The notes beneath the pieces were generated by a model. The model saw only the letters and a list, made by a program, of their open reading frames with translations, did not search any database and was not told where the DNA came from. From the IMG/VR virus record IMGVR_UViG_3300008259_000009: a stretch of DNA of 64,000 nt; one strand, given 5' to 3'. Each line of letters opens with the position of its first letter. The first letter of the stretch is position 1. Of this stretch, positions 1 to 6,997 are shown in pieces. Source of the stretch: a virus. The translations under genes were made by a program, and so were the position numbers.

Positions 1-4
1 TTTT

Positions 5-337
5 TTATTTTTTATAAAACCAAAAAGAGTTTTTACCACAATTACCAAGTTTAAATAAACTACCTTCAAAGACATCATTTAATTTTTCAATAACTTCTTC
101 GGCAATTTCTTCAGTATCCTCACCTGATTGTTTAAATTTGACCATAAATCTATCGTATGGTTTATCTGAGGATTCACGGTGACCACCAATCCATTCATCT
201 TCACCAACGTAATCGTCCATAAGTTTGTTTAACTCAGATTCAATTTTTTTATTTGATGGGTCTTTCTTACTTTCATTGATTACTCGTTTAACAAATCTTG
301 TTAAATCCGATTCTGTTAGCCTAATTACTTTTTTCAT
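5..337 (-). CDS. Hypothetical protein with MKKVIRLTESDL..VKRVINE N-terminal leader
   Basis: Internal Met49 of the 5..481 ORF; ATATTTAT motif at 342-349; upstream part of the ORF overlaps a structured RNA. Confidence 0.8.
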   Translation of the reverse strand: MKKVIRLTESDLTRFVKRVINESKKDPSNKKIESELNKLMDDYVGEDEWIGGHRESSDKPYDRFMVKFKQSGEDTEEIAEEVIEKLNDVFEGSLFKLGNCGKNSFWFYKK

Positions 338-371
338 ATTAATAAATATTGCAATTGGTATAAAAAATAAT

Positions 372-490
372 GTCCAGGTGTGGGAATCTAACCCACTTAG
401 TCCATATTCGTTGCTTGTACGTCTGGGCAATTTATTGTTAGGACCGTCCCATTCGTCAATGGGGTGTGTAACACAATCCACCTACCTGAA
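372..490 (-). ncRNA. tRNA-like RNA (acceptor stem + T-arm, enlarged central domain)
   Basis: TTCAGGT/ACCTGGA acceptor; GTGGG-TTAGATT-CCCAC T-arm; inner GGTCC/GGACT stem; no canonical anticodon loop. Confidence 0.55.
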
Positions 491-501
491 GGTTTTATGT
501 G

Positions 502-584
502 TGGGATGTGATGGAGTCGAACCACCCGAGTCCGAAGACAAACGATTTACAGTCGTTCCCGCTGCCCCTACGGTATAACATCCC
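502..584 (-). tRNA. tRNA-Tyr(GTA)
   Basis: GGGATGT/ACATCCC acceptor, CT-GTA-AA loop, long variable arm, TTCGACT T-loop. Confidence 0.92.
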
Positions 585-593
585 AAGTTTAGG

Positions 594-722
594 AAATCAG
601 AAGATGGTTGTGTGGACATCTGATTTTACGATTGGCATTACTTTGGTGTATATCTCCCAACTCCGATGATACTGACCGATATACACTCTCGTGTCATTAG
701 TATCACCCTTCCCCAATCAACC
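594..722 (-). ncRNA. Pseudoknotted structured RNA candidate
   Basis: Crossing 9-bp helices 699-707/665-673 and 678-686/646-654, closing helix 713-718/630-635, 8-bp hairpin 619-626/594-601. Confidence 0.55.
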
Positions 723-727
723 TATTG

Positions 728-800
728 CGACTCAGACAGGACTCGAACCTGTAACGTTCACATTAACAGTGTGATGCTCTCCCAATTGAGCTACTGAGTC
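728..800 (-). tRNA. tRNA-Asn(GTT)
   Basis: GACTCAG/CTGAGTC acceptor, TCACA-CTGTTAA-TGTGA anticodon arm. Confidence 0.95.
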
Positions 801-806
801 ATTTTG

Positions 807-878
807 CGCGTCTCCAAGGACTCGAACCCTGACCAAGAGATTTGGAGTCACTTATGCTTGCCGTTACACCAAAGACGC
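807..878 (-). tRNA. tRNA-Trp(CCA)
   Basis: GCGTCTT/GAGACGC acceptor, CT-CCA-AA loop, TTCGAGT T-loop. Confidence 0.9.
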
Positions 879-904
879 AAATAATGAAATTAATTATTTC
901 ATTG

Positions 905-978
905 AGGACAGAGAGGGATTTGAACCCCCGAATAATGGATTTGCAGTCCACCCCTTTAAACCACTCAGGCATCTGTCC
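905..978 (-). tRNA. tRNA-Cys(GCA)
   Basis: GGACAGA/TCTGTCC acceptor, U73, GTGGA-CTGCAAA-TCCAT anticodon arm. Confidence 0.93.
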
Positions 979-992
979 TTGTTAATTTGTTT

Positions 993-1058
993 AGAGGTTG
1001 GTTTACATTCAGTGACCATGACTTGTACTTCGTCTCAAGGGGTAAACCCTATACCTCT
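993..1058 (-). ncRNA. Imperfect long hairpin RNA candidate
   Basis: AGAGGT/ACCTCT and GGTTTAC/GTAAACC stems with inner GAC/GTC stem, between tRNA-like genes. Confidence 0.4.
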
Positions 1059-1062
1059 ATTG

Positions 1063-1213
1063 TGACCCCAATGGGAATCGAACCCACCTTGTTAACTACA
1101 TATAAGATGCTTTGACCTAAGTGACCCATATACTAGTACTACGGGTGCCAACTACAAATTATCATCGTTAACCCACTCACCGCTTCGGTTGCGACCCTAA
1201 CAGTTATGGAGTC
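1063..1213 (-). ncRNA. tRNA-like RNA with ~70-nt insert at the anticodon position
   Basis: GACTCCA/TGGGGTC acceptor, A73, GTGGG-TTCGATT-CCCAT T-arm, GTTAAC/GTTAAC stem enclosing an insert with an ACCCGTA/TATGGGT hairpin. Confidence 0.65.
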
Positions 1214-1219
1214 GTATTG

Positions 1220-1291
1220 TAGCCCCTGTAGGACTCGAACCTACACTATCTTGTATGTAAAACAAGCGCTTTTCCTTTAAGCTAAGGAGCT
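1220..1291 (-). tRNA. tRNA-Val(TAC)
   Basis: AGCTCCT/AGGGGCT acceptor, CTTGT-TTTACAT-ACAAG anticodon arm. Confidence 0.93.
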
Positions 1292-1298
1292 ATTTTTG

Positions 1299-1373
1299 TA
1301 TCCCCGAAGAGATTCGAACTCTTGACCCCTCCATTAAAAGTGGAGTGCTCTAATCCTGCTGAGCTACGAAGAC
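1299..1373 (-). tRNA. tRNA-Lys(TTT)
   Basis: GTCTTCG/CGGGGAT acceptor, CTCCA-CTTTTAA-TGGAG anticodon arm. Confidence 0.93.
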
Positions 1374-1379
1374 ATTTTG

Positions 1380-1452
1380 TTGTGATGGAGGGATTCGAAC
1401 CCCCGTAAACTATCGTATCAGGATAGCCCCTACACCGCTCGGGCACATCACA
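1380..1452 (-). tRNA. tRNA-Ile(GAT)
   Basis: TGTGATG/CATCACA acceptor, CTATC-CTGATAC-GATAG anticodon arm. Confidence 0.9.
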
Positions 1453-1469
1453 GTTTTAGTTTCTTGGAA

Positions 1470-1477
1470 CAAATATA
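1470..1477 (-). promoter_or_regulatory. Bacteroidota sigma-A -7 element (TATATTTG) for the distal half of the tRNA array
   Basis: Matches TAnnTTTG about 18 nt upstream of tRNA-Ile. Confidence 0.65.
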
Positions 1478-1508
1478 ACCGTTTTTTGGTATATACCGCA
1501 ACATTATA

Positions 1509-2333
1509 CTAATTTTCTTTTTCTTTTTTTCTGTCTTTATATGTTTTATTTACTTTATGTTTAGCAACCTCATCGTTAAAGTCAGATATTTCTTTATCAG
1601 TTATATTATTAATTCTGTTATTGGCGTTGATAATATATTCCTCAGATATATCAATCCCAAAATAGTTATGCCCTAATAGTTTAGATGCAACCGCTGAAGT
1701 TCCACTACCCATATATGGGTCAATAATGTCACAACCTTCTTTATCATCCAATATTGAGTAAATACATCTTGTCGGTATTTCAATTGGAAATGGTGCGGGA
1801 TGATTAGATACCGTAGATTTATTCATTTCAGGTCGTAATCTCCAAACTGATGTCATTAATGCATGTTTAGATTTTAATTCCTCACCATTATCTTTTTTAT
1901 TTATTGGTTTGTACAACCAATAAATTCTTTCCTCCACTTGCCAAAATCTCCAACCTCTAATATTTGCGGCAATTTGTCTATCCCAAATTATTTCTTGTTT
2001 AACTGTCCAATCAGTTTTTTTTAACCAATCCATCGGATGAAACATTTCTCCTTTATCCCATCTAATTTTATGGTTATAAAAGAACGAACCTCCAGGTTTA
2101 ATAACACGAAACAATTCGTTTAGTATTTCAATTTGCTCTATTTGGTATTCAGATTCATTTTTATTATCCGTAATATCCGAATATTTAATATCCTTAACCA
2201 AGACACCTTTTCTATTGTTTTGTTTATTATAAGGTGGGGATGTTACACCCATATCAAAAATGTTTTCATCAAGTGTTTTTAAAACATCATACACATCACC
2301 AAGTACTATATTGTTTTTAATTTCCATATTCAA
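1509..2333 (-). CDS. DNA methyltransferase, N4-C/N6-A beta class
   Basis: Catalytic TSPPYN motif before HPAPFP and DPYMGSGT SAM-binding motif. Confidence 0.92.
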   Translation of the reverse strand: MNMEIKNNIVLGDVYDVLKTLDENIFDMGVTSPPYNKQNNRKGVLVKDIKYSDITDNKNESEYQIEQIEILNELFRVIKPGGSFFYNHKIRWDKGEMFHPMDWLKKTDWTVKQEIIWDRQIAANIRGWRFWQVEERIYWLYKPINKKDNGEELKSKHALMTSVWRLRPEMNKSTVSNHPAPFPIEIPTRCIYSILDDKEGCDIIDPYMGSGTSAVASKLLGHNYFGIDISEEYIINANNRINNITDKEISDFNDEVAKHKVNKTYKDRKKEKEN

Positions 2334-2934
2334 TCAACGATTTAAAAAACGGTTTTGTAAATTTATGTTCATATTCACTAATCATAGGTGAAATATATTC
2401 AAGTCTAAACGAATCTGAATTTTTAAAGTGTAAGTAACTAAATTTAACACTTCTAACATATCTATTTAATTCATCACCGTTTGGTAAGTGTTTAGTTAAT
2501 TGCCGTTCTATTTCATTTACAAAATCAACTGAGTTATATTGGAAACTTACTAAAAACAATAATTTACCATCTAAAAACCCCGACACTACCATTTTAACTT
2601 TATCATCTTTATATTTTTTGTGTCTTTTCCATGTAAAGTCACTGAAATTACCTGAACCGTCAAACTTTTTAGTTGAATCTGATGATAAATTCTTTGGTTT
2701 AACTTCAATTGGGTATTCGTCAGAATCGTACCCTAATTTGTGAACACTTTGTTTTACCCCTAAAATCCCCAATGTCACCCCTTCTCTAAATAATGAGGAA
2801 TTTTTATCATTAGACATCTCATTAAGTAACCCTAATAATAACGTTTCTTTGGTTTTGTCATCAAGTTCTAATATTTTAGAATTATCTCCTAATGAATAGT
2901 TTAATTTTAATTCTGATAGATTCATACAATACAT
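2317..2934 (-). CDS. Putative type II restriction endonuclease
   Basis: Overlaps MTase start; YDS..IEVK resembles PD-(D/E)xK core; start uncertain (2925-2976). Confidence 0.55.
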   Translation of the reverse strand: MYCMNLSELKLNYSLGDNSKILELDDKTKETLLLGLLNEMSNDKNSSLFREGVTLGILGVKQSVHKLGYDSDEYPIEVKPKNLSSDSTKKFDGSGNFSDFTWKRHKKYKDDKVKMVVSGFLDGKLLFLVSFQYNSVDFVNEIERQLTKHLPNGDELNRYVRSVKFSYLHFKNSDSFRLEYISPMISEYEHKFTKPFFKSLIEYGN

Positions 2935-2986
2935 TTTTAACAAAGTACGTAAATAAAATAAATTATTCAATACCATTAATTTTTTG

Positions 2987-3061
2987 TAGGGTAGACAGGA
3001 CTCGAACCTGCACTATGTCCTCATCCCAAATGAGGCGGCCTACCAATTGGCCAACTACCCT
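2987..3061 (-). tRNA. tRNA-Pro(TGG)
   Basis: AGGGTAG/CTACCCT acceptor, CCTCA-TTTGGGA-TGAGG anticodon arm. Confidence 0.92.
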
Positions 3062-3067
3062 ATATTG

Positions 3068-3137
3068 TACCGAGTATGGGGATTGAACCCACTTGACCAT
3101 CCTTATGAGAGATAGTTCTTTACCACTAAGCCTCGGT
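3068..3137 (-). tRNA. Atypical tRNA with CAT anticodon (Met or Ile2), short D region
   Basis: ACCGAG/CTCGGT acceptor, CT-CAT-AA loop, normal T-arm; D region about 3 nt short. Confidence 0.65.
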
Positions 3138-3144
3138 ATCTCAG

Positions 3145-3233
3145 CGGAGAATGTGGGATTCGAACCCACGCATCATGTTTCAGACCTATCACGTTAGCAA
3201 TGTGACCCCTTAAACCATCTTGGGTAATTCTCC
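3145..3233 (-). tRNA. tRNA-Ser(GCT)
   Basis: GGAGAAT/ATTCTCC acceptor, TT-GCT-AA loop, long variable arm. Confidence 0.92.
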
Positions 3234-3237
3234 GTAG

Positions 3238-3309
3238 AAGTCTCTGAAGGATTTGAACCTTCTCTAAAACATCCGTAGTGTTTCGTGCTGTCCGTTACAC
3301 CAAGAGACC
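3238..3309 (-). tRNA. tRNA-Arg(ACG)
   Basis: GGTCTCT/AGAGACT acceptor, AAACA-CTACGGA-TGTTT anticodon arm. Confidence 0.9.
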
Positions 3310-3315
3310 AAAGTG

Positions 3316-3389
3316 GGTAACTAATGGGAATCGAACCCATGGCACAAGGAACCACAATCCTTTGCTCTACCTACTGAGCTATAGCTACC
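3316..3389 (-). tRNA. tRNA-His(GTG)
   Basis: G-1, GTAGCTA/TAGTTAC acceptor, C73, AAGGA-TTGTGGT-TCCTT anticodon arm. Confidence 0.92.
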
Positions 3390-3409
3390 ATAAAATTTTA
3401 TTTTCTATG

Positions 3410-3482
3410 TGGAGAGGGTGGGAATCGAACCCACATTGCTGGATTTTCAGTCCAGTGCCTTGACCAACTTGGCAACCTCTCC
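3410..3482 (-). tRNA. tRNA-Phe(GAA)
   Basis: GGAGAGG/CCTCTCC acceptor, CTGGA-CTGAAAA-TCCAG anticodon arm. Confidence 0.94.
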
Positions 3483-3488
3483 TTATTG

Positions 3489-3562
3489 TTGTCCTGGAAG
3501 GATTTGAACCTCCAATTTCCTCGTTCAAAGCGAGGTGACTTTGCCAGTTCGTCTACAGGACA
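3489..3562 (-). tRNA. tRNA-Gln(TTG)
   Basis: TGTCCTG/CAGGACA acceptor, CCTCG-CTTTGAA-CGAGG anticodon arm. Confidence 0.92.
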
Positions 3563-3568
3563 GTGAAC

Positions 3569-3706
3569 TCACTTTTTGAGTTTTTTTAAAATCTTTTTTA
3601 AAAGTTTTGATTTTACTTTAATTTTAATCCCTTCTTTTCTTAAATTTTCCTGACTTGAGTTGAAGGTCCCCTCAAGTACAATTTTAATAGTTTCTTTTTT
3701 TCCCAT
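3569..3706 (-). CDS. Small lysine-rich protein (45 aa) inside the tRNA array
   Basis: MGKKETIKIVLEGTFNSSQENLRKEGIKIKVKSKLLKKILKKLKK, read manually. Confidence 0.5.
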   Translation of the reverse strand: MGKKETIKIVLEGTFNSSQENLRKEGIKIKVKSKLLKKILKKLKK

Positions 3707-3722
3707 AATTTATTTTTTAGCG

Positions 3723-3809
3723 AGGAGGGTGTGGGACTTGAACCCACAAGACCTATTACACGTCTTACTCGTTTTCAAGACGAGCTCTTCATCCAGCCAG
3801 ATACCCTCC
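3723..3809 (-). tRNA. tRNA-Ser(TGA)
   Basis: GGAGGGT/ACCCTCC acceptor, CT-TGA-AA loop, long variable arm. Confidence 0.9.
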
Positions 3810-3820
3810 GAATTTTTATA

Positions 3821-3840
3821 CCAATATGTCAAAGAACAAA
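3821..3840 (-). promoter_or_regulatory. boxA-like antitermination element
   Basis: TTTGTTCTTTGACATATTGG resembles rRNA-operon boxA (E. coli TGCTCTTTAACA); lies between terminator and first tRNA. Confidence 0.6.
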
Positions 3841-3866
3841 AAACCCCCGAACTTGTGGTCCGAGGG
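3838..3866 (-). terminator. Intrinsic terminator (attenuator) upstream of the tRNA array
   Basis: CCCTCGG-ACCACAAGT-TCGGGGG followed by TTTTTT. Confidence 0.85.
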
Positions 3867-3888
3867 CTTATATCATAGTTAATCTTTT

Positions 3889-4005
3889 TTAACTTATAAA
3901 ACACTTCGGACTACCATATGACATGCTCGGATACCAATTGCGGTTACACGAGATGACAATCTGTGATTGTTTAAAATTAATCATATGTTTACCAAATGTT
4001 TTCAT
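3889..4005 (-). CDS. Leader peptide (38 aa) of putative tRNA-array attenuator
   Basis: MKTFGKHMINFKQSQIVISCNRNWYPSMSYGSPKCFIS; between promoter and terminator; carries two sequences complementary to the terminator 5' arm. Confidence 0.75.
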   Translation of the reverse strand: MKTFGKHMINFKQSQIVISCNRNWYPSMSYGSPKCFIS

Positions 4006-4024
4006 TGTTTTTTAATAACTATTA

Positions 4025-4032
4025 CAAATATA
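4025..4032 (-). promoter_or_regulatory. Bacteroidota sigma-A -7 element (TATATTTG) for the leader/tRNA operon
   Basis: TAnnTTTG 20 nt upstream of leader ATG. Confidence 0.75.
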
Positions 4033-4067
4033 GGAAAAATCCTCGTTTAATCAATATTTCTTTAAAA

Positions 4068-4247
4068 TTATATTTTTTTCACTGAATAAATGTGACCTGA
4101 ATCTGAATTTGTTTGAAATATCTCTTTCATCTTATCAGCCTCCTTTTCAGATTCAAACTCCCAAACTTCATTATCAGAATTTAAAATTATAACAGGTAAC
4201 CATTTACCTGATTTTTTGTTTTTAATGCTTTTGATTATTACATACAT
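4068..4247 (-). CDS. Hypothetical protein (59 aa)
   Basis: MYVIIKSIKNKKSGKWLPVIILNSDNEVWEF..., read manually; TACATTTG promoter at 4266-4273. Confidence 0.65.
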   Translation of the reverse strand: MYVIIKSIKNKKSGKWLPVIILNSDNEVWEFESEKEADKMKEIFQTNSDSGHIYSVKKI

Positions 4248-4297
4248 AGTTTTAGATTTTTTTTACAAATGTAACGTTTTTTTGGTTACGGTTCAAC

Positions 4298-6997
4298 TTA
4301 GTATTTGTTTTTTCTTGAAAATGGGTTATTTGAGTCGTCACGTTTTCTTTTTTGAGGGAAGAACTCCCTATTTTGAGCCGCCAAAGTACCCTTTTTAATT
4401 TCAATAAGTTTATTCCTGTCGTTTGGCACATGTTCTCTAACAGGTTTCACATTTTTTGATGGATGGTATATATCAGTTCTATTTAAAACTTGATTGATTA
4501 AATCATAATTTATTTTGGAATCAGAATTTTTTGGTTTAACATTTAATTTAATAACGTCAGTTAATAGAGTATCTATTTTTTGTTTATTAATTATGAATTT
4601 TTCATACTCTTCATCAATAATCTTTTTATTAAAAATTTCATAAAAAGATTCGGTTACTAAATTTTCTATCGGTCCAAAAGTTTTTCTTTTTTTACTTAAA
4701 TTATAATATTTACCTCTCATTTGAGAAGATAAATTAGTATCGGGATGTTGAGTTAAACTATTTTTATGGACCCTTCTATAAAACCCTAAAGATTTGGTAT
4801 GGATTAATTTGACATTATTTTTATATAATCTATTCATTAGGTCAGAATCCGCCGCACATCTCCACCCCTCAAAACCATTCATGTCTAAAAATAATTTTTT
4901 CTCAATTCCAAAAACACCTTCACCATATGTGTTTGCATTTGATTTTTCCAAATTAATGTTTTTAACTTCTTCGTTGAAATCTATATACATAGGCTTTATT
5001 AGCTTATGTGTTGATTTATAACGAATGATGTCTTGGACAAGTTCTTCTTTCATAATGTCATCAGAATCAAAAAACATTAAATAATCAGAATTTGAAATCA
5101 GTGATAAACTATTTTTAACAATATAAGGTCCGACATTTTGATTAAAGTAATAGAATCTAATTCTTGGGTCAAATTTACTGTCTTGAATATAAGATAGTGT
5201 TTTTTTGCACCCATCAATTCCAACTAATATCTCAACATTTAAATCTTTAATTGATGTTAATACAGAATCTAAACATTCGGTTAAATAATTTAAAACATTA
5301 TACGTTGGGATGATGATTGATATGTCCTTTTTATTGTTTTTTATATCAAATTCATTAACCATTTTATTTAACGTTAATAAATCTTTTAATACCAAAATAT
5401 TCTCATTTTTATCGTTATTACCAATAACTAACCCTTTATTACCAGGTATCCAATTAATTAAATTTTCTAATATTTGATGTGAGAAACTTTTTTTATTATT
5501 ATCCACCGAAAATAAAATTTTACTATTAAGTTTTTCTTTAAAATTATTTTCTAAGTAAGTAAGATGGTGCATATACATTTGAGAAATATAATATTTTTTT
5601 TCGGGCATTTTTCTTGCAGGGTCAGAAAGAACTGAACTACTTATATGTCTACCATATTTTCTTTCATCAATTTTATAAATTGATGGTACGTAAAGTTTGT
5701 CCTCAACAAAGTAATATTTATCACTTTTATAATATGACACGATTGGTGAATATAATGTGTCAATACCATTCTCATTCATGAATTTTATTTCATCAGTAAC
5801 ATATCTATCATTATAACATTCATCATTATCTAAAGTTAGAATATAATCACAATTCGCGTTTTTACATTTAGATAAACCAACATTTCGTTTGTCTATCATT
5901 CCGATAATCTTATCTACCACATCTTCATCATATAACACCAATTCATCTATATAACCACAATCAACCAATTCTTGTAATAAAATATTATTTTCAATTGAGC
6001 CGATTTCACCCGAAAAACTTTTTTTCTGATGAACCACACATATGTAATCAACAACATTAATAATTGATTCAATTGATTTTTTTAATACGTCAACATTATA
6101 AAAGGAATTATATGAAACCCCAACTTTTAAATTATTAAATTGTTTAGTTTTAAACCTATGAGATATTGTTCTACTAAAATCTAACCATTTATTGTTAGTC
6201 AACAATTCAGTTAACTTTTTTTCTAAAGTTTCATAATTTTCAAATTCGTGGATTAAATCACCATAATAATTCTTTTTACTTAGTTCCGATACAACACATT
6301 TACTATTATTTAATAAATAAAATAACCTTACTTGTTCTTGTATTGACGATTCATAAAAATGTAAATTTAAAATAATTTTAGTTTCTGAAATTATATTATC
6401 TAACTTATCCGAAAAATCTTTAGGTAAAAATTTAATTCCCGAATTATTTAACTCAACGTTATCTACATCAAAATTGTCACCAATAACAACTAAATTAAAT
6501 TTAGAATTTATTTTTTTTAAAATTTCAAATCGTTTTTTATTTATTGCACCATAAAATAAAATGTCGTATTTAGGGTTTTGATTAACCTTTATGTTTTCTA
6601 AAGATTTAGAATATTTAAGTGGTACAAATTTTACTTTATTGTAACCAAGAGTTTCTAAAAACCACTTATTAGATAAATCATATTCCCATATTTCATCACA
6701 TTCATCCAACCATTTTTTAATGTGAGAGGTTCTATGTTTCACATGTTTTGAATTACTATTAGGGTTAAACCAATTTGGGTTATAATTAAAAAGTTGCTCT
6801 AATTGGTAAACTATTATTTTTTTATTAGGGTATTTTTCTCTATAGAAATTAATCTCTTTACCTAAATTATATCCTAATATAACCAGACAATTATGGTATT
6901 TAGAATTATCAGAATATAATTCTTCAACCATTGTCTTTACATGTAAAAATGTACCAACATCACTATCTCTGTTGATTACACATTTAAGTTTCTCCAT
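4298..6997 (-). CDS. Multidomain glycosyltransferase (GT-B-like part plus GT2 domains)
   Basis: YDILFYG..IILNLH..RLFYLL; LTLDNDE DxD motif; ISIIIPTYN..FFDSDD GT2 motifs. Confidence 0.85.
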   Translation of the reverse strand: MEKLKCVINRDSDVGTFLHVKTMVEELYSDNSKYHNCLVILGYNLGKEINFYREKYPNKKIIVYQLEQLFNYNPNWFNPNSNSKHVKHRTSHIKKWLDECDEIWEYDLSNKWFLETLGYNKVKFVPLKYSKSLENIKVNQNPKYDILFYGAINKKRFEILKKINSKFNLVVIGDNFDVDNVELNNSGIKFLPKDFSDKLDNIISETKIILNLHFYESSIQEQVRLFYLLNNSKCVVSELSKKNYYGDLIHEFENYETLEKKLTELLTNNKWLDFSRTISHRFKTKQFNNLKVGVSYNSFYNVDVLKKSIESIINVVDYICVVHQKKSFSGEIGSIENNILLQELVDCGYIDELVLYDEDVVDKIIGMIDKRNVGLSKCKNANCDYILTLDNDECYNDRYVTDEIKFMNENGIDTLYSPIVSYYKSDKYYFVEDKLYVPSIYKIDERKYGRHISSSVLSDPARKMPEKKYYISQMYMHHLTYLENNFKEKLNSKILFSVDNNKKSFSHQILENLINWIPGNKGLVIGNNDKNENILVLKDLLTLNKMVNEFDIKNNKKDISIIIPTYNVLNYLTECLDSVLTSIKDLNVEILVGIDGCKKTLSYIQDSKFDPRIRFYYFNQNVGPYIVKNSLSLISNSDYLMFFDSDDIMKEELVQDIIRYKSTHKLIKPMYIDFNEEVKNINLEKSNANTYGEGVFGIEKKLFLDMNGFEGWRCAADSDLMNRLYKNNVKLIHTKSLGFYRRVHKNSLTQHPDTNLSSQMRGKYYNLSKKRKTFGPIENLVTESFYEIFNKKIIDEEYEKFIINKQKIDTLLTDVIKLNVKPKNSDSKINYDLINQVLNRTDIYHPSKNVKPVREHVPNDRNKLIEIKKGTLAAQNREFFPQKRKRDDSNNPFSRKNKY

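Follow-up and report, generated by a model that had tools for sequence, protein, structure and literature searches.

A candidate leader-peptide attenuator ahead of a transfer RNA gene block in a phage genome

The stretch of viral DNA analysed here, 64,000 nucleotides (nt) of record IMGVR_UViG_3300008259_000009 from the IMG/VR database and called the window below, carries on its minus strand a block of 15 transfer RNA (tRNA) genes which is preceded, at 4032-3815, by a short leader region. The original prediction, made from the letters of the window, held that this leader is an attenuator whose codons mirror the tRNA array behind it. When the coordinates were checked on the minus strand, every feature was found where the prediction had placed it: a promoter-like motif of the TAnnTTTG type is followed by a 38-codon open reading frame (ORF), an intrinsic terminator, a boxA-like element and the 15 tRNA genes (Table 1), and the terminator core begins 22 nt 3' of the leader stop. 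The two ORF segments described as complementary to the terminator 5' arm (3936-3926 and 3916-3904, with the arm at 3864-3856) also read as described and pair with the arm at the energies given in Table 1. As expected of an attenuator, a short ORF with its own start lies between the promoter-like motif and the genes to be regulated, and an intrinsic terminator lies between this ORF and the tRNA genes; no promoter-like element was found in the window sequence from the terminator to the tRNA-Ser gene.

ARAGORN recognizes 14 tRNAs in the block. The fifteenth, with a CAT anticodon (3137-3068), scores 28.0 bits with Rfam against a threshold of 29 and is 94% identical to its homologue in the related contig L003, which ARAGORN calls tRNA-Met(CAT), so that the predicted array of 15 tRNAs for 14 amino acids was recovered. 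The motif at 4032-4025 belongs to a type that is not enriched in the window (123 matches, 110 expected); its position before the ORF and its conservation in the closest relative, L060, are what suggest a promoter role. A conserved promoter-like block ending 8-14 nt before the ATG was seen in L011, L053, L049, L076, L100 and the leader-2 family, and would give very short or no 5' untranslated regions. Some leaders have a second TAnnTTTG element about 35 nt farther upstream.

Table 1. Features of the leader region and the tRNA block in the window, and leader units on other contigs (designated by L numbers).
Feature	Position	Strand	Remarks
59-codon ORF	4247-4068	-	Upstream of the promoter-like motif
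Promoter-like Bacteroidota -7 element (TAnnTTTG type), TATATTTG	4032-4025	-	19 nt before the leader ATG
Leader ORF, 38 codons + stop	4005-3889	-	Upstream context A-rich; second codon Lys
Protector (region 1), 5' end of the ORF	4005-3990	-	Pairs with the distal antiterminator segment in untranslated RNA (minimum free energy fold); duplex -9.5 kcal/mol
Local hairpin inside the ORF	3955-3923	-	Contains the proximal segment; -8.2 kcal/mol
Proximal antiterminator segment	3936-3926	-	Duplex with terminator 5' arm, -11.0 kcal/mol
Distal antiterminator segment, codons 30-36	3916-3898	-	Complementary to terminator 5' arm, -11.5 kcal/mol
Intrinsic terminator	3869-3836	-	12-bp stem 3869-3841, 5-nt loop, T-run; -16.9 kcal/mol
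boxA-like motif, 14 nt	3837-3824	-	With conserved 3' extension, element to 3815
tRNA-Ser(TGA), first gene of the block	3809-3722	-	ARAGORN
45-codon Lys-rich ORF	3706-3569	-	Between tRNA-Ser and tRNA-Gln; kept in all variants, leaderless ones included
tRNAs Gln, Phe, His, Arg(ACG), Ser(GCT), CAT-anticodon tRNA, Pro	3562-2986	-	ARAGORN except the CAT-anticodon tRNA
Internal promoter-like TAnnTTTG element	1477-1470	-	Ahead of tRNA-Ile; all variants have it
Distal tRNAs Ile(GAT), Lys, Val, Cys, Trp, Asn, Tyr	1452-501	-	ARAGORN
Unit 2	L002:7488-7565		25-codon ORF, terminator, same boxA, then tRNA-Thr(TGT) and Leu(TAG); directly after the 110-codon gene
Unit 3	L002:7904-7936		10-codon ORF (Asp, Gly, Thr, Leu, Met codons) in an 11-bp hairpin without T-run, then boxA
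Leader of L007	L007:2251-2337		Before Tyr, Asn, Phe, Arg(TCT), Trp, Glu, Asp, Lys, Val, Ile, Ala, Gly, Thr, Met, Cys
Two leaders of one 288-kb phage	L008:1235-1324 and L008:3928-4032		Complementary blocks

The leader of the window encodes all 14 amino acids served by the block, and 35 of its 38 codons (34 of the 37 residues after Met1) fall in this set. The exceptions, one Thr and two Gly, are located in the shared N-terminal start and in the two pairing RNA segments. Leu, Glu, Asp and Ala are absent, while both Ser codon boxes and a CGC Arg codon are present; the codon count thus bears out the composition on which the prediction was built. The 14 amino acids account for 62.5% of the long ORFs of the window and for 72% of random short ORFs. 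Under a protein-like composition, the probability that at least 34 of 37 residues fall in the set is 5e-5 and that all 14 amino acids occur is 2.4e-3 (joint p of share and coverage < 2.5e-6). Under the composition of random ATG ORFs taken from the six frames of the window, these values become 3e-3 and 1.5e-2 (joint p 1.3e-4). For the absence of Leu, Glu, Asp and Ala, the two nulls give 1.8e-5 and 4e-4, respectively. The chance estimate of 1e-5 to 1e-6 that had been attached to this absence hence agrees with the protein-like null but is 20 to 400 times too optimistic under the random-ORF null. The six frames contain 124 actual ATG ORFs that are 30-50 codons long; two of them have an equal share of block amino acids, and only the leader lacks all four of the missing ones. 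The leader contains no codon run: each of the 14 amino acids is represented by 1-6 scattered codons, and the tandem runs of classical attenuators are absent. Taken by itself, the window is suggestive of an attenuator and not conclusive.

The attenuator interpretation is supported by comparative tests, namely permutations, comparisons within families and within genomes, control ORFs, isoacceptor codons and the complementarity of terminator arms. Relatives were collected with a 17-nt pattern consisting of the T-run and boxA, which yielded 67 further loci besides six IMG/VR contigs. The hairpin of a unit was the best one before the T-run and at most 160 nt upstream of boxA, the ORF was the longest ATG ORF with its stop at most 90 nt before that hairpin, and the block comprised the same-strand tRNAs from the terminator to the next unit, a 2.5-kb gap or the end of the locus. 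This gave 85 units of terminator and boxA before tRNAs, 84 of which have an ATG ORF; the leader set consists of 38 unique leaders from phage contigs, in 18 sequence families.

Residues after Met1 belong to the leader's own block with a share of 0.567 in the 38 leaders (0.429 ± 0.016 when permuted, p < 5e-5) and of 0.638 in the 18 family representatives (0.492 ± 0.024 when permuted, p < 5e-5); as the units share descent, these p-values are not those of independent samples and overstate independence, a problem that is lessened by the tests within families and genomes. The result is the same after removal of the window's family. The leaders cover 0.95 of the amino acids of their blocks (0.91 for the representatives) versus 0.75, and permutation restricted to within families gives p = 3.5e-4. 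Nineteen of the 20 amino acids are commoner in leaders whose block has their tRNA. At the eight loci with two units, the own block beats the other in all eight cases (0.54 versus 0.30). Size-matched control ORFs from the same loci have a share of 0.444, compared to 0.575 in the leaders (p = 1.7e-5), and a coverage of 0.625, compared to 0.948 (p = 1.2e-7). Because the preference for the own block persists in within-genome swaps and against these controls, genome base composition is excluded as the cause of the match. Leader content thus co-varies with array content in related phages (38 leaders, 18 families), as the original prediction had anticipated.

The correspondence extends to codons. In leaders ahead of blocks that hold only one isoacceptor class, codon choice follows that class for Ile (ATH versus ATA, p = 5e-5), Arg (CGN versus AGR, p = 0.006) and Leu (CTN versus TTR, p = 5e-6) in the set of 38; for the 18 representatives the effect is weaker and its direction unchanged (p = 0.018, 0.051 and 0.19, respectively). 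Individual leaders illustrate the rule. The leader of L007 has 26 of 27 residues in the set of its array and covers 15 of 15 amino acids, with Ser, Gln, His and Pro missing from leader and array alike, and the two leaders of the 288-kb phage stand before complementary blocks. In other leaders the prevailing residues are Thr/Gln/Gly/Ala/Pro, Asn/Ile/Asp/Glu/Tyr/Cys or Leu/Asp/Val/Ala/Glu/Trp, and the tRNAs behind each of them match. Scanning metagenomes for the leader 5' end typical of the window's family yielded another 24 unique leaders that have arrays; their coverage is near-complete and all frames are open. The homologous leader ORF is open in 28 further sequences, and pairwise differences between homologues number 356, 364 and 552 at codon positions 1, 2 and 3, an excess at the third position. 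The leader families have no sequence in common; what they share is the mirroring of their own block.

The same phage was followed beyond the edge of the window. A search with the 110-residue protein encoded at 337-5 led to six metagenomic contigs. One of them, L002, is from the same phage: over 7.4 kb it matches the window at 99.8-100% identity, and it extends past the window's left edge, where two more units are found (Table 1). The core of the unit 2 ORF consists of Leu, Ile(ATA), Asp, Ala, Arg(AGA), Thr, Glu and Gly codons, and in the variants L001, L004 and L006 the tRNA block of this unit additionally holds Ile(TAT). Unit 3 may work in a mode different from units 1 and 2. In L001, which is 92-96% identical to the window, the block after the third boxA contains Asp, Glu, Leu(TAA), Gly, Ala, Arg(TCT) and Met. 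Later blocks therefore serve the four amino acids that the first leader lacks (Leu, Glu, Asp, Ala) as well as its Thr and Gly exceptions. L060, the closest diverged leader, has lost all Asn codons along with tRNA-Asn. Among GenBank phages (INPHARED) no relative of the window was found, only isolated tRNA matches; IMG/VR protein searches with the 899-residue glycosyltransferase and the 219-residue ORF gave no match, and neither did the exact 39-mer of the terminator.

The variants also differ in protein genes that are inserted within the tRNA array (1509-2976 in the window). The window, L002 and L003 have an ORF of 219, 202 and 205 residues, respectively, together with an N6/N4 DNA methyltransferase (PF01555) inside the array. 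In L004 (2595-3167) and L006 an HNH endonuclease gene separates Trp from Asn, and L001 has a different HNH-like ORF ahead of tRNA-Gly. In the gaps of the array at 585-726 (142 nt) and 979-1218 (240 nt) of the minus strand, neither ARAGORN nor Rfam found a tRNA.

Folding of the full-length leader transcript of the window gave a minimum free energy structure of -46.3 kcal/mol in which the first ORF codons are paired with the distal segment, the proximal segment is held in the local hairpin and the terminator is formed. With the 3' arm of the terminator blocked, the 5' arm is taken by the distal segment (-33.6 kcal/mol). The consequences of translation were explored with a crude ribosome-masking model, in which the ribosome footprint is masked in the transcript as it stands before the terminator 3' arm is made. 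In this model the terminator arm is sequestered to 85% with codons 1-27 in the ribosomal A site, to 30-50% with codons 29-34 and to 50% with the ribosome at the stop codon. This fits a kinetic race, in which a ribosome that keeps up would cover the antiterminator and one that lags behind would free it.

The complementarity between ORF and terminator is a property of the family. Among units that differ in their terminators (28 in all), duplexes between the 5' arm and the unit's own ORF average -11.5 kcal/mol, compared to -7.4 kcal/mol with the ORFs of other units (p < 5e-5). The antiterminator segment reaches into the final 30% of the ORF, or across its stop codon, in 22 of the 28. At the level of the family, the pairing is that expected of mutually exclusive antiterminator and terminator structures. 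One relative has a perfect 9-mer between ORF and terminator arm. A terminator with a T-run is found downstream of the ORF at narrow spacing in all 38 unique units. The spacer from stop codon to stem measures 17-36 nt (median 24), so that a terminating ribosome leaves the hairpin itself uncovered. In L060 and L325 the terminator stem is preserved via one-sided changes. For the antiterminator, the window's own subfamily offers three distinct sequences with one-sided changes, an alignment without power to reveal covariation.

The element that follows the terminator is a boxA. Together with its extension (3815-3837) it is identical to the boxA of the 16S-23S spacer in ribosomal RNA (rRNA) operons of Bacteroidota. 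More than 120 bacterial genomes contain the boxA 17-mer, and nearly all of these belong to Bacteroidota (Pedobacter, Mucilaginibacter, Chitinophagaceae, Bacteroidales); on an rRNA-operon contig of Pedobacter hartonius it lies between the spacer tRNAs and the 23S rRNA. This is also the place of the spacer boxA in known rRNA operons such as E. coli rrn. In IMG/VR, boxA with the conserved extension has six matches, on contigs of 30-288 kb, and all six stand directly ahead of tRNA arrays. The phage element thus combines a host-identical sequence with a place before stable-RNA genes, as is typical of the boxA of rRNA operons. The phage boxA and its extension equal the spacer boxA found in genomes of Sphingobacteriales and Chitinophagales (L116:2545-2561), which suggests a host from Bacteroidota, and the phage appears to reuse the host's rRNA antitermination signal. 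In rRNA-operon antitermination, boxA elements act mainly against Rho. By analogy, the Nus complex may be loaded at the phage boxA and protect the long untranslated array from Rho. The motif was also considered as a promoter because of a sigma-70 -35-like hexamer; since it equals the boxA of the rRNA-operon spacer and is not followed by a -10 or Bacteroidota -7 element at usable spacing, this assignment was rejected.

A second boxA-like match with one mismatch (25913-25900) has no tRNA behind it and was dismissed as chance level. It lies upstream of a minus-strand gene, running from about 25763 downward, whose N-terminus is typical of DnaK/Hsp70 and which seems to be a phage-encoded Hsp70. Several relatives carry a tRNA or tRNA-like RNA between terminator and boxA (L008:1378-1455; L043, reverse strand, 1862-1935). 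In one leader subfamily this is a normal tRNA-Thr, and the 288-kb phage has a short tRNA-like RNA there, with a GCA anticodon-like loop and without a D arm.

We consider it likely that the region 4032-3815 is a ribosome-mediated (leader-peptide) transcription attenuator ahead of the phage tRNA block. The promoter would start a short transcript, whose 38-codon ORF represents each amino acid of the 15-tRNA block by one codon or more and in its last third is complementary to the 5' arm of a terminator starting about 20 nt past the stop. If this ORF is translated in pace with the polymerase, the ribosome would be on the complementary segment or at the stop codon when the terminator is made; the terminator would form and transcription would end. 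Slow decoding at any earlier codon (about 1-27) would cause the ribosome to lag, upon which the free segment could capture the 5' arm and the polymerase would continue. It would next transcribe the host-identical boxA, at which the Nus antitermination complex is probably loaded to serve the long array that is not translated. The trigger could be any slowing of decoding, and the phage probably makes the tRNAs of the block when ribosomes slow down at their codons. Since the phage tRNAs read the leader's own codons, the circuit would constitute a negative feedback on decoding capacity, divided by code blocks.

Besides the shared descent of the units, several observations weigh against an attenuator of this kind. 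In the window itself the pairing of the ORF with the terminator 5' arm (-11.7 kcal/mol) is not significant against dinucleotide shuffles (-8.4 ± 1.9 kcal/mol, p = 0.063), and in the comparison with the ORFs of other units the antiterminator comes only 10th of 28. The masking model also yields the antiterminator without any ribosome, and a ribosome at the stop codon lowers arm sequestration only to 0.5; with the antiterminator as default and sequestration merely halved at the stop, the switch is kinetic at best. In the subfamily with tRNA-Thr after the terminator, a simple duplex search finds weak antiterminators of -6.6 to -7.9 kcal/mol. Many leaders hold residues for which their own block has no tRNA, the mean share being only 0.57, and in L060 Phe, Lys and Cys codons remain even though its array lacks the corresponding tRNAs. 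A cassette of 360 nt containing leader, terminator, boxA and tRNA-Ser is missing, together with the proximal tRNAs, from L001 and L005, which keep four distal tRNAs. The cassette indel corresponds to 3707-4067 of the window versus L001:1825-1830 and L005:2381-2385; the 59- and 45-codon genes lie 3 nt apart there, and the array behind the 45-codon gene is reduced to Ile, Cys, Trp and Tyr. The leaderless variants imply that the cassette is dispensable and mobile within the phage population. Finally, the original prediction had cautioned that a second promoter at 1470 may drive the distal tRNAs, and this element proved to be conserved in all six variants, even where the gap between Pro and Ile measures 67 nt; the distal seven tRNAs are probably also expressed independently of the leader, from this internal promoter. 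Variants without the two protein genes between Pro and Ile still keep the element.

Some of these points would suit a leader whose ORF is translated and reports decoding but whose output is Rho-dependent polarity, the fate of the precursor (its ribonuclease processing or its stability) or the way the boxA complex is loaded, perhaps with the opposite direction of the switch. Such a leader could have an antiterminator that is formed by default and only halved by a ribosome at the stop codon, weak antiterminator pairing as in one leader subfamily, a mini-ORF within a hairpin without T-run as in the third unit of this phage, and a boxA whose counterparts in rRNA operons are mainly directed against Rho. 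It does not account for a strong T-run terminator at a spacing of 17-36 nt in 38 of 38 unique units, nor for 5' arms that fit their own ORF better than others (p < 5e-5), and we regard it as rather unlikely.

That the terminator merely serves the upstream operon of the glycosyltransferase and the 59-codon ORF, with a chance or unrelated ORF, a separately transcribed array and a coincidental composition, is in our view improbable. The window alone leaves room for it, as random AT-rich ORFs already consist of block amino acids to 72%, an equal share occurs in 2 of 124 random ORFs, the p-value of the antiterminator is 0.06 and an internal promoter is present. However, the sequence from the terminator to tRNA-Ser contains no promoter-like element, the motif there being the rRNA-operon boxA, and chance would need to have produced the match in each of 18 leader families whose blocks differ, and at the codon level as well. 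Least probable of all, and very much so, is that selection has kept the ORF for the activity of a micropeptide which it encodes and which might be a small regulator or sit in the membrane. The ORF is indeed conserved as an open frame, homologues differ in excess at third codon positions, and N-terminal residues are common to many leaders. Yet the families have no sequence in common apart from the mirroring of their blocks, non-synonymous differences (648) outnumber synonymous ones (262), and the activity of a peptide leaves the complementarity to the terminator unexplained.

Multivalent leaders are known from enterobacteria, with thr responding to Thr and Ile and ilvGMEDA to Ile, Leu and Val, next to the classical trp, his, phe and leu leaders. 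Of these, pheL is a classical leader-peptide attenuator (PMC3082878). Similar to these systems, the phage leader comprises a short ORF, an intrinsic terminator, a competing segment set by the position of the ribosome and a 5' protector, and slow decoding would lead to read-through. The differences are considerable. The classical attenuators control biosynthetic enzymes and carry runs of codons for one to three amino acids, whereas the phage leader precedes tRNA genes and has single or few codons for 14 amino acids. In addition, the product is itself part of the sensed quantity, which would give direct feedback on tRNA supply, and the element is phage-borne, occurs as several units that divide the code and has a boxA after the terminator. 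Like the pheST (pheM) leader and the T-boxes, it would tie the expression of a decoding component to the tRNA pool via terminator and antiterminator. The pheM leader, however, senses one amino acid and controls a synthetase, and a T-box binds one uncharged tRNA directly and without translation, whereas in the phage leader the signal would be the amino acid and codon content of the ORF. A T-box or other known RNA leader was rejected for this locus, as window positions 1-6000 gave no match to the T-box (RF00230) or another Rfam leader at E values up to 1.

The boxA resembles that of rRNA-operon antitermination in having an identical 17-nt motif before long untranslated stable-RNA genes. It differs in being located in a phage, before arrays of tRNAs only and behind a terminator that is probably conditional, where it may bind Nus factors. 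Drug-sensing attenuators of resistance genes, such as vmlR (PMC9226507) and yxjB (PMC6851288), also use a ribosome stalled in a leader ORF to turn off a downstream terminator; in those systems the cause is an antibiotic that stalls ribosomes carrying specific nascent peptides, and here it would be the supply of many tRNAs. Phage tRNAs have been related to tRNA-cleaving immunity, both for PARIS (PMC11464382) and for retron and other systems (PMC11555353), and the block described here may likewise replace host tRNAs that are depleted in infection. Those studies deal with the question which tRNAs rescue infection, not with the control of their expression, and the phage leader would add a layer of sensing and control. 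Full-text literature searches found no description of leader-peptide control of tRNA genes, in line with the statement of the original prediction that no such attenuator was known for a tRNA array.

Phage tRNA genes are usually seen as a passive codon supplement or as decoys that counter defences based on tRNA cleavage (PMC11464382, PMC11555353). If the attenuator interpretation is true, the phage expresses each tRNA block in direct response to how fast the codons of that block are decoded, which would explain why large phages sort their tRNA genes into blocks behind short ORFs. More tentatively, and with considerable doubt, we propose that large phages of Bacteroidota have code-partitioned, self-sensing tRNA regulons with multi-input leaders and a borrowed boxA. 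Each leader would gauge, in real time, the speed at which the codons of its own block are read, and would pass the polymerase on to the boxA. The system may act as an alarm that calls up replacement tRNAs upon host shut-off or attack by anticodon nucleases (PARIS, PrrC, retron effectors). The attenuator would add tRNA genes to the amino-acid and synthetase genes that are under leader-peptide attenuation, provide a natural sensor with 14 inputs and represent a case in which the boxA of host rRNA operons is reused by a phage. It would also supply an annotation rule for tRNA regulons of metagenomic phages, in which the leader predicts the tRNAs that follow.

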